DNA from: a virus
Taxonomy: Duplodnaviria; Heunggongvirae; Uroviricota; Caudoviricetes
IMG/VR virus record: IMGVR_UViG_2724679539_000003
Location: 1 to 36,560 of that record
Length of the DNA stretch: 36,560 bases
Reading direction: 5' to 3' (one strand)
The notes beneath the pieces were generated by a model. It saw only the letters and a list, made by a program, of their open reading frames with translations. It had not been told where the DNA came from and did not search any database. The stretch's first letter is position 1; each line of letters starts with the position of its first letter. Position numbers and translations under genes: made by a program. Below are positions 8,274 through 11,169 of the stretch, one piece after another.

Positions 8274-8828
8274 TTATTTATCCCCTGCAGGAAACCTCTT
8301 ATACAAAGTTGACACACCAACATCATAGATAATCGCCACCTTCTGGCGAGGAATGCCTGATGCAATTAATCGCCCGGCCTGCGCCCATTGTTCTAGTGTA
8401 AGTTTGGGACGACGTCCCCCAATTCGTCCCTGTGCGCGAGCAGCTTCCAGTCCAGCTTTTGTTCGTTCAACAATCAGTTCTCGTTCCATTTCAGCCAGGG
8501 CACCCATCACATGAAAGAAAAAACGCCCCATCGGTGTGCTGGTATCAATAGCATCCGTCAGGCTGCGAAAATTAACGCCACGTTCGCGCAACTCCTCAAC
8601 CAGAATGACCAGATGCCGCATACTACGCCCCAGCCGATCCAGCTTCCAGACAACCAGAGTATCACCTGCCGATAATGTCCTGAGCAGTTTTTTCAGTCCC
8701 GGCCTTTCGGACTTTGTACCGCTTATCTTGTCTTCAAAAATCAGCTCGCATCCTGCACAGTTCAGCGCATTACGTTGTAGATCTGTGTTCTGGTCATTTG
8801 TTGACACACGTACATAGCCAATAAGCAT
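8274..8828 (-). CDS. pin: Pin/Gin/Hin-family serine DNA invertase
   Basis: ORF 8274-8864; likely start ATG at 8828 (AGGGAG RBS), giving 184 aa MLIGYVRVSTNDQ with the serine-recombinase catalytic N-terminus and a C-terminal HTH. Confidence 0.92.
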   Translation of the reverse strand: MLIGYVRVSTNDQNTDLQRNALNCAGCELIFEDKISGTKSERPGLKKLLRTLSAGDTLVVWKLDRLGRSMRHLVILVEELRERGVNFRSLTDAIDTSTPMGRFFFHVMGALAEMERELIVERTKAGLEAARAQGRIGGRRPKLTLEQWAQAGRLIASGIPRQKVAIIYDVGVSTLYKRFPAGDK

Positions 8829-8854
8829 GGTAGATCTCCCTGACAAAAGCAGGA

Positions 8855-9349
8855 ATGATGCCATTTGCTCGTTATTTCTGCATTTTCATAAACGTTGGTT
8901 TGGGAGAAGCGGCAAAACGGAATGTGGGCAACGGGGAAAACCAAATCCCTGATATGTCTTTCTGGACGGTTACTGGTGGCAATGGAAATTTTGTGATTCG
9001 TCAACCTGACGGGCTAATCATCCAGATGGTTACTGTAAGTATAAGCGGCCCAGTGGCGATGAATGGAATGACTGATAATGCTTATGCCATCACAGGTTCT
9101 AATAAGTCTTATATTGCCACAGCCACATTGCCCTTTGTATTTCCTAATAAGGTGCTGGGCGTTATCCCTCTGGTATCAACAACAACCTATGGTGGTGTAT
9201 CCAGTAATATTACAGGTTCATACGCGACGGCGGTTTGTTCTTTTGCCGCTGTCCGGGGGAATAATACGATTGTATTCAAAGTCGACAAACCACTGAATGC
9301 AGCCTTTCCTTCAGATACCAGCGTCTCAGCGTTAATCATTGGACGGTAA
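8855..9349 (+). CDS. Silent alternative tail-fiber C-terminal segment (Stf-prime variable part, expressed only after inversion)
   Basis: The ORF shares the GLGE codons at the crossover site with the expressed tail fiber; no own promoter or constant N-terminus. Confidence 0.65.
   Translation: MMPFARYFCIFINVGLGEAAKRNVGNGENQIPDMSFWTVTGGNGNFVIRQPDGLIIQMVTVSISGPVAMNGMTDNAYAITGSNKSYIATATLPFVFPNKVLGVIPLVSTTTYGGVSSNITGSYATAVCSFAAVRGNNTIVFKVDKPLNAAFPSDTSVSALIIGR
8883..8908. other. Invertase crossover site 1 (gix/hix-like, 12-2-12)
   Basis: TTTTCATAAACG TT GGTTTGGGAGAA; its reverse complement closely matches the site at 10867-10892. Confidence 0.7.
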
Positions 9350-9351
9350 TA

Positions 9352-9795
9352 ATGAACTCAGTATTCTTTTCACCCGGAAGTAAAAGTTTTTATCTACAAG
9401 AATTGTTTCCAGAATATGAGGATGCGGGAACGCTTCCAGATGATGTTATTGAAATTACCCGAGAAACATATGAGCAATTTCTTGGGCTGCATCCAGAAGG
9501 GAAAGAAATTGGCGCTGACAGTTCAGGACGGCCAGTATGGATTAATTCCCCACCCCCTTCAAAAGAGGATGAGGTGTTGACGGCTGAAATGAAAAAAATA
9601 TCTTTGGTTTCAGAAGTCAATACCTACATCAATACCCATCAGTGGCCTGGCAAAGCTGCTATTGGTCGTCTGAAAGGTGACGAGCTGGAACAATATAATT
9701 TATGGCTGGATTATCTGGACGCACTGGAACTGGTTGATACCTCCAGTGCTCCAGATATTGAATGGCCTACGCCTCCGGCAGTTCAGGCCAGATGA
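9352..9795 (+). CDS. Tail fiber assembly protein (alternative, inside invertible segment)
   Basis: 147 aa with Tfa-family C-terminus LDYLDALELVDTSSAPDIEWPTPP; convergent with and overlapping the other tfa. Confidence 0.85.
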   Translation: MNSVFFSPGSKSFYLQELFPEYEDAGTLPDDVIEITRETYEQFLGLHPEGKEIGADSSGRPVWINSPPPSKEDEVLTAEMKKISLVSEVNTYINTHQWPGKAAIGRLKGDELEQYNLWLDYLDALELVDTSSAPDIEWPTPPAVQAR

Positions 9796-10369
9796 CATCC
9801 GGCGCGGTGCTGGTATCTGTTGCCGTCACCGTGTCAATGTAATCCAGCACAGCGTTAAGCCGGGTTGTTTCTGCCTGCGTCAGTTTCCGTCCGGCCTGTA
9901 ATTTCAGCTGAATCAGACTAATGGAAGCCATTGCAGCATCAATCAGTGACTGGCGCTGTGCTTCTGCCGCGTCTACTGCGGCGCTATGCTGTGCCTCAGT
10001 ATCCGTCACCCATTTCTCACCATCCCATTTATCGTATGGCGTTAATGGGGCGATAGTGGTTGTATTATTAGGGTAATCACCCGGAGCTGTGATTTCTTTT
10101 GATTCTCCTGTTTCGGTGCTAAAGACGATTTCACCGCGATGGTCTGGCACATATTCCCATGACTTAAAATCTGCAGAACGGCAGATTGCATAACCAGCTT
10201 TGTATGCGCCTGGAGCATCTAAACAGGAACATGCCGGAATACCGACGCCAACCGCAAGATATTCAGTTGATGTGGAAATATATTCCCGCGTTTCACCATC
10301 ATAATTATAAATGGTAATGTCTCCCGCTTTTATGGCAATGAGTTCGTTATTTAATACGGCTTTATTCAT
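9767..10369 (-). CDS. Tail fiber assembly protein (currently in the expressed orientation)
   Basis: 200 aa with Tfa-family C-terminus LDYIDTVTATDTSTAPDVIWPELP; ATGA overlap with the tail fiber stop. Confidence 0.85.
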   Translation of the reverse strand: MNKAVLNNELIAIKAGDITIYNYDGETREYISTSTEYLAVGVGIPACSCLDAPGAYKAGYAICRSADFKSWEYVPDHRGEIVFSTETGESKEITAPGDYPNNTTTIAPLTPYDKWDGEKWVTDTEAQHSAAVDAAEAQRQSLIDAAMASISLIQLKLQAGRKLTQAETTRLNAVLDYIDTVTATDTSTAPDVIWPELPEA

Positions 10370-11169
10370 CAGGCAGCCCTCACGATATAATTAAAGGCAA
10401 TGTTACGAGGACGGTTTTCGTTTGCAGTTGGAACAATTCTTGAAGCATCAAGGCCAATCACTTTTGGGTAAACACCGCCCTCGGACCTTTCTGTCACCAT
10501 ACTTCTGACTAAGGAGAAATAACTATTGTTCGTTGAGGGATTCAAAGGCACTACTGCCCCCTTAAACGAGCCTACTGATTCCCATATTGAATAATTTTCG
10601 GTGTTTACAGTCTTGAACTCACCATAGATATTACGTATGGCATCGCCCTGAGCTGATAATATTGCCCTCCCCGTATCCATACCACGTCCGTCATCCCAGC
10701 CACGAATAAACTCACCACGTAAATCAGGCAATTTATTTGTCGGGTAAGCCTTTGCCAGTTCCGGGTATTCTTCAACAGAAAAAGCTGCTCCGTTGCATTT
10801 CAGCCAGCCTGTTGGCGGAGTGGCTGAGGGCCACGGAACAGGTACGCCAACAGGCAATGCTGAGCCTTCTCCTAAACCAAGGTTTTCGAGAGCCGTTTTC
10901 ACCGTGCCATCCGATTTGATATCACCAAACGGATTCTTGCGGCTTAACAGCAGAGCACGAAGCGCGGTAAGCAACTGGTCGTTTCGCCCCTTCTCCAGGC
11001 TGGCACCGGATGCCTCCACCACGCTGCAGAGTTCTTCCTGCAACATATCAAAGTAGTCATCATCCAGATCGGTGGCAGGTGTGCCAGTCTGGGGGTTACC
11101 ACGGGTAAAACCGTTCTTACCCGCGCCGAACTTATCCTTCTGCGCGGTTTTCGTGTCTATACGATGCAT
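10369..11169 (-). CDS. Tail fiber protein with tail-collar domain (constant N-terminus outside, variable C-terminus inside the invertible segment)
   Basis: 266 aa; collar-like motif LKCNGAAFS...YPEL...[15 protein letters not shown]; crossover site lies at codons 93-101. Confidence 0.85.
10867..10892. other. Invertase crossover site 2 (inside the tail fiber gene)
   Basis: TTCTCCTAAACC AA GGTTTTCGAGAG on the plus strand, an inverted copy of site 1; it falls on the GLGE codons of the tail fiber. Confidence 0.7.

Follow-up and report, generated by a model that had tools for sequence, protein, structure and literature searches.

How a prophage can hold two versions of its tail-fibre tip in one short stretch of DNA, and whether it can exchange them, is the question raised by positions 8274-11169 of IMG/VR virus record IMGVR_UViG_2724679539_000003, a caudoviricete sequence whose 36,560 nucleotides were analysed as a whole (hereafter, the window). 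Here, a gene for a serine DNA invertase, pin, lies beside a segment containing two tail-fibre C-termini and two tail-fibre assembly (tfa) genes, which a preliminary description of the sequence had read as an invertible switch between two host-range states. We show that the locus is the Pin invertible tail-fibre cassette, known as the P segment, belonging to a prophage of the e14 family inserted at icd, and that the homologous segment really inverts at the same sites in close relatives. For the window itself, a Gin-like inversion, catalysed by Pin and swapping the fibre tip together with its co-expressed chaperone, is in our assessment very probable.

The crossover sites provide the first line of evidence. 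When the entire 36.6-kb window is scanned with the palindromic consensus of Hin/Gin-type invertase sites, TTCTCNNAAACCNNGGTTTNNGAGAA, allowing at most three mismatches, only two matches are returned, namely 8883-8908 (two mismatches) and 10867-10892 (one mismatch), and the same scan of 100 dinucleotide-preserving shuffles of the window returns none. Across the window there are, within three mismatches, no further sites that could serve Min- or shufflon-type multiple inversions. A repeat search independently recovers the pair as a 20-nt inverted repeat that is 90% complementary (8890-8909 and 10866-10885). The pin-proximal site reads TTTTCATAAACG TT GGTTTGGGAGAA and the distal site, which lies inside the fibre gene, TTCTCCTAAACC AA GGTTTTCGAGAG; both are imperfect 12-2-12 dyads, with symmetry at 8/12 and 9/12 positions, respectively, and they are inverted relative to each other, with 20 of the 26 positions shared between the distal site and the reverse complement of the proximal one. 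The core dinucleotides, TT at 8895-8896 and AA at 10879-10880, are identical when read on their respective coding strands. The proximal site is identical to its counterpart in the e14 element of E. coli K-12 and the distal site differs from its counterpart by a single base, while 17-19 of the 26 positions are held in common with the gix sites of phage Mu.

The sites are also placed so that an exchange between them preserves the reading frame. Both cores form codon positions 2-3 of the residue preceding the motif GLGE, this residue being Leu97 of the expressed tail-fibre gene (10369-11169, minus strand, 266 residues) and Val14 of an open reading frame (ORF) of 164 residues next to pin (8855-9349, plus strand). 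In the fibre gene, codons 1-97 (10879-11169) are constant and the remainder (10369-10878) encodes a variable, collar-type C-terminus, whereas the pin-proximal ORF consists of a 14-residue leader running across the crossover site, followed by a silent fibre C-terminus of ~146 residues. Measured from core to core, the segment between them (8895-10880) is 1986 bp long and carries, besides these two C-termini, a 200-residue TfaE-like chaperone cognate to the expressed tip (9767-10369, minus strand; Pfam Caudo_TAP, E 9e-33) and a 147-residue Tfa cognate to the silent one (9352-9795, plus strand; Caudo_TAP, E 6e-28). Inversion of 8895-10880 in silico yields an uninterrupted fibre of 247 residues, made up of residues 1-97, GLGE and the C-terminus of the 164-residue ORF. 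The anatomy given in the preliminary description thus holds in most respects: the coordinates of the two 12-2-12 sites are exact, both fall on the same GLGE codons in the same phase, the predicted fusion of constant N-terminus to alternative C-terminus is in frame, and its ~100 constant residues correspond to the constant 97 plus the shared GLGE at 98-101. Its inventory of the segment, two convergent tfa genes and an alternative C-terminus, needs one amendment, in that both variable C-termini lie inside and not the alternative alone.

That such segments do invert is seen directly in related genomes. Among complete E. coli genomes with a match over at least 80% of the region, 35 carry the cassette in the native arrangement of the window and 17 in the arrangement of the in-silico flipped window, with a best match of 97.6% identity in each class; the e14-type prophage of strain KE58, also at icd, has its P segment in the flipped arrangement. 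More telling are four pairs of nearly clonal genomes in which the partners differ by the inversion: PRO_A-1443 and fS25a (L001 and L007; flanks 99.98% identical, inverted segment 1996 bp), 23CRST031 and 23CRST027 (L005 and L006; 99.96-99.98%, 1921 bp), GCA_977066875 and GCA_977066825 (L059 and L058; 99.98%, 1996 bp) and the MG1655 assemblies CP032667.1 and NC_000913.3 (L002 and L004; 100%, 1839 bp). For each of the four, the overlap of collinear and inverted alignments falls inside the 20-bp repeat, which places the breakpoints within the sites. A polymorphic inner half-site, GGTTTGGGAGAA or GGTTTAGGAGAA, is found on the opposite side in the other partner, the outer half-sites keeping their places, and these natural flips narrow the exchange to the 7 bp TTGGTTT, core dinucleotide included; confinement of the exchange to 7 bp around the core is the mark of site-specific and not of homologous recombination. 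The sites of L001 and L059 are exactly the two found in the window, and those of L007 and L058 exactly the ones predicted for the window once flipped. The preliminary description had allowed for only one orientation ever being observed; both occur, in near-clonal relatives and with breakpoints in the sites. As a side observation, the fibre genes are annotated as pseudogenes by the PGAP annotation pipeline in one of the two MG1655 assemblies.

The enzyme encoded beside the segment appears fit for the task. The pin gene (8274-8828, minus strand) encodes a 184-residue Gin/Hin-type serine DNA invertase orthologous to PinE, its start being the ATG at 8828 (MLIGYVRVS) and not the in-frame upstream ATG at 8864. 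Pin contains the Pfam domains Resolvase (E 8e-52) and HTH_7 (E 4e-14), belongs to PHROG 125 (DNA invertase), aligns over residues 1-181 with the Mu Gin structures 3UJ3 and 4M6F (E 1e-93), and is identical to K-12 PinE over residues 1-60, the portion that was compared. In the Gin alignment, it retains the catalytic Ser9 together with Arg8, D64, R65 and R68, and the mutated active-site serine that the preliminary description had named as an example of a dead pin is not present. Fis- and enhancer-dependent invertases share residues for contact with Fis or the enhancer that resolvases do not conserve, namely Q151, R154 and L155 of Hin and the basic residues at 47, 48 and 51 (PMC3798978); with a Hin-to-Pin numbering offset of -1, taken from the alignment of the Hin DNA-binding domain, their equivalents Q150, R153, L154, K46, K47 and R50 are all present. 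Judged by its domains, residues and sites, Pin is intact and has the features of the Fis/enhancer-dependent invertases (Hin, Gin, Cin and Pin, the 'Din' family).

A candidate position for such an enhancer is indicated by phage P7, the record of which annotates one at nucleotides 19-86 of cin. The homologous stretch of pin, 8743-8810, is near-identical across pin, gin and cin, and two G-N13-C 15-mers (8807-8793 and 8758-8744) lie 49 bp apart in this 5' end of the gene. Positional homology is therefore what points to a candidate recombinational enhancer within the first ~90 bp of pin, on which Fis may act. On its other side, the pin ATG is 67.5 bp away from the centre of the proximal site, which lies upstream of it.

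Taken together with what is established for Mu and P1, these features suggest how the switch would operate. Dimers of Pin would bind both 26-bp sites, probably aided by host Fis on the putative enhancer, and staggered 2-bp cuts at the central TT/AA, rotation of one half-complex through 180 degrees and religation would leave 8895-10880 inverted. Transcription of the minus-strand late tail operon would always take in constant codons 1-97 of the fibre gene. In the orientation of the window, these would be read into the collar-type C-terminus, giving the 266-residue fibre, and then into the gene for the 200-residue TfaE-like chaperone; in the flipped orientation, they would be followed by the unrelated 146-residue C-terminus, giving the 247-residue fibre, and then by the 147-residue chaperone. 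A population of lysogens would thereby release virions with two alternative receptor-binding tips, a form of host-range bet-hedging akin to that of Mu G(+)/G(-) and the P1 C segment.

The two tips are indeed very different proteins. The constant part of the fibre, taken as its N-terminal 105 residues, is 96% identical to K-12 StfP, and GLGE (residues 98-101), which follows directly on constant residues 1-97, is common to both tips. The expressed tip has a Pfam Collar match at residues 108-155, is 57% identical to K-12 StfE over its collar-type C-terminal part and resembles the tip of T4 gp37 (2XGF) and a short tail fibre (9CUY), that is, tips of the gp37/gp12 type. The silent tip matches PHROG 12714 (E 5e-47) and other tail-fibre PHROGs, together with a weak match to Gp53-like_C that is below the curated Pfam cut-off. 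BLASTP finds no similarity between the window's two tips, nor between the silent tip and the C-terminus of K-12 StfP. Of the chaperones, the 200-residue Tfa is 91% identical to K-12 TfaE and the 147-residue Tfa 57% identical to K-12 TfaP. The convergent tfa genes share 29 bp (9767-9795), each reading its own strand, as tfaP and tfaE do in K-12, and both proteins carry similar C-terminal motifs, SAPDIEWPTPP and TAPDVIWPELPEA.

A number of points weigh against this account of the window or against parts of it. Switching in the window's own strain is a prediction from its sequence, and so is the proposal that the two tips would bind different receptors and thus confer two host ranges on the virions; for the silent tip, a sequence search of the PDB gave no significant solved homologue. 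The immunity and integrase end of the prophage, on the icd/int side, lies beyond the window, which bears on virion production, and the 'apparently complete prophage' of the preliminary description accordingly stands for the tail, head and lysis modules and not for that end. A promoter and terminator scan of 8100-11300 gave counts not above those of shuffles and nothing convincing for either pin or the pin-proximal ORF. Conservation at third codon positions, compared among the three sequences pin, gin and cin, is 6/18 in the putative enhancer and 24/107 in the rest of the gene (p=0.24), and a scan of pin for Fis sites with GNNYRWWWWWYRNNC was set aside as stand-alone evidence, the consensus being so degenerate that it produced many matches, with several pairs ~48 bp apart. 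One could read the missing promoter and the statistically indemonstrable enhancer as signs of a frozen relic, with the right anatomy and an orientation now fixed in the window's strain, for instance through a silent pin or a failed enhancer. Set against that, Pin is full length with all of its catalytic and Fis-contact residues and is 100% identical to the protein of another E. coli prophage record, and the very sites of the window recur in L001 and L059, to which the flipped L007 and L058, respectively, are near-clonal; we hold such a relic to be highly improbable. It may also be asked whether the adjacent pin is the main driver. In K-12, PinQ and PinR flip the P segment in trans and are reported to be dominant (PMC12529663): PinQ, PinR and PinE all invert it, and on overproduction inversion reached 88% with PinQ compared with 49% for PinE. 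In the same study, however, a pinE mutant was locked in one orientation, and the spacing of pin and site that is conserved with Mu gin argues for a cognate pair, so a segment inverted mainly by PinQ/PinR-type enzymes, with pin in a minor role, appears very unlikely. Least credible of all, to the point that we give it almost no weight, is that the inverted repeat arose by chance or is inverted by general homologous recombination; any inverted repeat can recombine in principle and nothing more speaks for it, whereas this repeat is just 20-26 bp long, matches the invertase consensus, adjoins the gene of a cognate invertase and is exchanged in nature at the core.

A different challenge concerns what the switch is for. 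Instead of, or besides, changing host range, it might act as a toggle of host-side defence, in which the lysogen makes N-terminally truncated chimeras of leader and tip that mask receptors in the outer membrane against other phages, a role that the preliminary description does not raise. There is a precedent for this, since inversion of the e14 P segment in K-12 creates StfE2, which blocks adsorption of phage T2 (PMC12529663), and the orientation of the window corresponds to the K-12 'inverted' (StfE2/StfP2) state. In addition, an ATG of its own (8855/8858) opens the pin-proximal ORF, the product of which is, whichever way the segment lies, a short leader joined to the tip that is absent from the virion gene; the leader is conserved (MMPFARYFCIFINVGLGE in the window, MPFACYFFIFINVGLGE in K-12), and PGAP calls the ORF a coding sequence in relatives. 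Against this, the leader is mostly dictated by the crossover site and the region upstream of pin, the Shine-Dalgarno-like AGGA is a poorly spaced 0-3 nt from the ATGs, and the pin-proximal tip does not detectably resemble the C-terminus of K-12 StfP, from which StfE2 is formed. Because the tip allele differs, the T2 result is not transferable to the window. A full virion module is in place, and the obvious role of the cassette there is to switch fibres; we regard a defence function of this kind as rather unlikely, and the exchange of virion tips with their chaperones by Pin remains the reading that we favour.

That virion module is well preserved. All tail, head, terminase and lysis ORFs within the window are uninterrupted, and from 11170 to 36000 the sequence is 96-98% identical across the structural genes to the viable Shigella phages SfV, SfI, SfII and SfIV. 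The Mu/SfV-type tail module begins directly upstream of the fibre gene with a ymfQ-like baseplate gene related to Mu Gp48 (11173-11757, minus strand; Pfam Phage_Mu_Gp48) and extends to ~28 kb, in a long minus-strand operon of tail, head and lysis genes. This is clearly a prophage of Escherichia/Shigella type.

The cassette itself has relatives among phages with other tails. At the DNA level, pin and the invertible segment are 85-92% identical to cassettes of P2-like phages (among them Escherichia phage 500465-1, Klebsiella Kp48xx-2 and Salmonella MET_P1_103_31), and this homology stops at the distal crossover site (query position 2618, equivalent to window position 10891). In the P2-like cassettes, the constant part is instead a P2 H-type fibre (Phage_tail_fib, 426-500 residues), and at the distal site the outer half-site is not that of the window. 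An identical 147-residue Tfa is found in three tail backbones, namely the SfV/Mu type (L056-L059 and L064), the P2 type (L055 and L061) and a third contractile type (L062 and L063); cassettes with this Tfa occur in both orientations, and the P2-type backbones include both (L055 and L061). Whatever the backbone, the inner half-sites remain the same, and the outer one is specific to the backbone. On this sequence comparison, the pin cassette moves as a module among SfV/Mu-type, P2-type and third-type contractile tails, with a boundary that lies exactly at the distal site.

One further record was considered as evidence from a viable phage and not used, namely ON470584.1 (L008, 'Escherichia phage vB_EcoM-689R6'), which is a prophage prediction with the host genes icd, mnmA and hflD. 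Its Pin is 100% identical to that of the window, and its invertible segment is missing between mcrA and a 516-bp stf remnant, a gap that would fit an assembly broken where the segment existed in both orientations.

The assignment to e14 follows from the surroundings of the cassette. Beyond pin lie mcrA (7339-8172, minus strand), for which the PADLOC model of a Type IV restriction enzyme gives E 1e-200, and icdC (6941-7105, minus strand), a duplicated icd fragment of the kind expected at the pin/mcrA end from integration at the 3' end of icd. From icdC through mcrA to pin, identity with K-12 and further E. coli, KE58 among them, is 97.5-99.2% (97.5% for K-12 and, at the mcrA end, 99.2% for KE58), and the gene order ymfQ, stf (constant part), [stf C, tfa, tfa, stf C'], pin, mcrA matches the annotations of NC_000913.3, CP032667.1 and KE58. 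When the preliminary description likened the locus to the Mu G segment and the e14 P segment, it was right in the most literal sense for the latter, as this is the e14 element at icd. The icdC-mcrA stretch (6889-8273) has a G+C content of 36%, compared with 56% for the tail/head module and 49% for pin, and this low G+C would fit separate acquisition of mcrA, as a moron, at the end of the prophage.

The system has a long history in K-12. Descriptions of e14 P-segment inversion go back to 1985; for the P segment and PinE, PMC4272514 cites Plasterk and van de Putte (1985) and Mehta et al. (2004), and the same paper measured the coexistence of both orientations in MG1655-derived cultures. A more recent study gives the K-12 P segment as 1797 bp together with its repeats, attributes inversion to PinE, PinQ and PinR, and finds that, of 562 E. 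coli genomes, 33% carry the P segment inverted (PMC12529663); full-length 'e14' prophages of other E. coli have also been used in comparisons already (PMC3636060). The K-12 element (stfP-tfaP-tfaE-stfE-pinE-mcrA-icdC) occupies the same chromosomal locus as that of the window, with the same neighbours and gene order, but has been reduced to a remnant of 15 kb in which head and tail genes are truncated, whereas the window has an uninterrupted SfV-type structural and lysis module. The window's segment is longer, at 1986 bp compared with 1797 bp, and its receptor-binding alleles are different, the collar tip having diverged from StfE and the other tip being unrelated to that of K-12 StfP.

Better known relatives share the logic of the switch to varying degrees. 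Mu Gin is 78.5% identical to Pin (by tblastn), and the boundary of the Mu G segment lies 67 bp upstream of the start of gin, the same geometry as the spacing of site and pin in the window. Both systems join a constant fibre N-terminus to one of two C-termini, each with its chaperone, downstream of a Mu-type baseplate (Gp45-48), but the G segment (S-U / S'-U') is ~3 kb, with a constant part of ~170 codons and other receptor-binding tips, and the window is shorter on both counts; moreover, Mu is a transposing phage, while the phage of the window is a hybrid of the SfV type, lambdoid with an HK97-type head. The Cin invertase of P1/P7 is 82% identical to Pin, with the enhancer annotated at the 5' end of its gene, and the C segment is likewise an invertible fibre gene with Sc, Sv and Sv' parts and U/U' chaperones. 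It differs in its length of 4 kb and, in P7, in the position of cixL, which is at the 3' end of cin and not upstream. The Hin system of Salmonella has in common with the window the enzyme family, 26-bp sites, conserved Fis-contact residues and, if the candidate enhancer in pin is one, the logic of a Fis-bound enhancer, yet its H segment flips a promoter in flagellar phase variation, makes no coding fusion and has hin inside it.

Elsewhere in the window, beyond the prophage, the left flank consists of an uncommon island (940-4212, plus strand; 5346-6173, minus strand; 6270-6827, plus strand) that no complete E. coli RefSeq genome covers. It encodes a 1090-residue inverse autotransporter (IAT_beta, Big_1 and Invasin_D3), whose closest relatives among 185,579 species-representative genomes are 37-55% identical, and a PhzF-family protein, and a truncated C-terminal fragment of a tyrosine integrase abuts icdC. 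Between the Q/nin region and the lysis genes, two ORFs run opposite to the late operon (31284-32306 and 32314-32898, both plus strand); they match components A (E 2e-32) and B (E 2e-54), respectively, of the PADLOC candidate system PDC-M53, have no significant Pfam family, and are probably a defence moron borne by the prophage. Two more ORFs, of 117 and 208 residues (28629-28982 and 29026-29652, both plus strand), lie between an HNH gene and the Rz, lysozyme and holin genes and match no Pfam or PADLOC family. An Rfam scan of the whole window gave no match.

What this locus adds to the biology of e14-type prophages is modest, as it is an ordinary and well-described Pin/P-segment switch in a common prophage family: PinE and the e14 P segment have been familiar since the 1980s, inversion has been measured in cultures (PMC4272514), and a link with phage defence was recently made (PMC12529663). 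What sets it apart from K-12 is the full-length virion module and the other receptor-binding alleles. For annotation, the 164-residue 'hypothetical protein' beside pin is the alternative fibre tip, and either of two sequences of the fibre gene is legitimate; at the P segment, assemblies from one clone will show a 2-kb inversion relative to each other, or will break. A larger consequence would attach to a possibility that we think quite unlikely, namely that the switch has a dual output, changing the tip of the virion and, at the same time, a leader-fused truncated tip (164 or ~183 residues) that is expressed by the lysogen from the pin-proximal ORF, masks a surface receptor and excludes other phages. 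If true, the StfE2/T2 mechanism reported for the remnant in K-12 would also operate in a live phage, and with another, uncharacterised allele of the tip.

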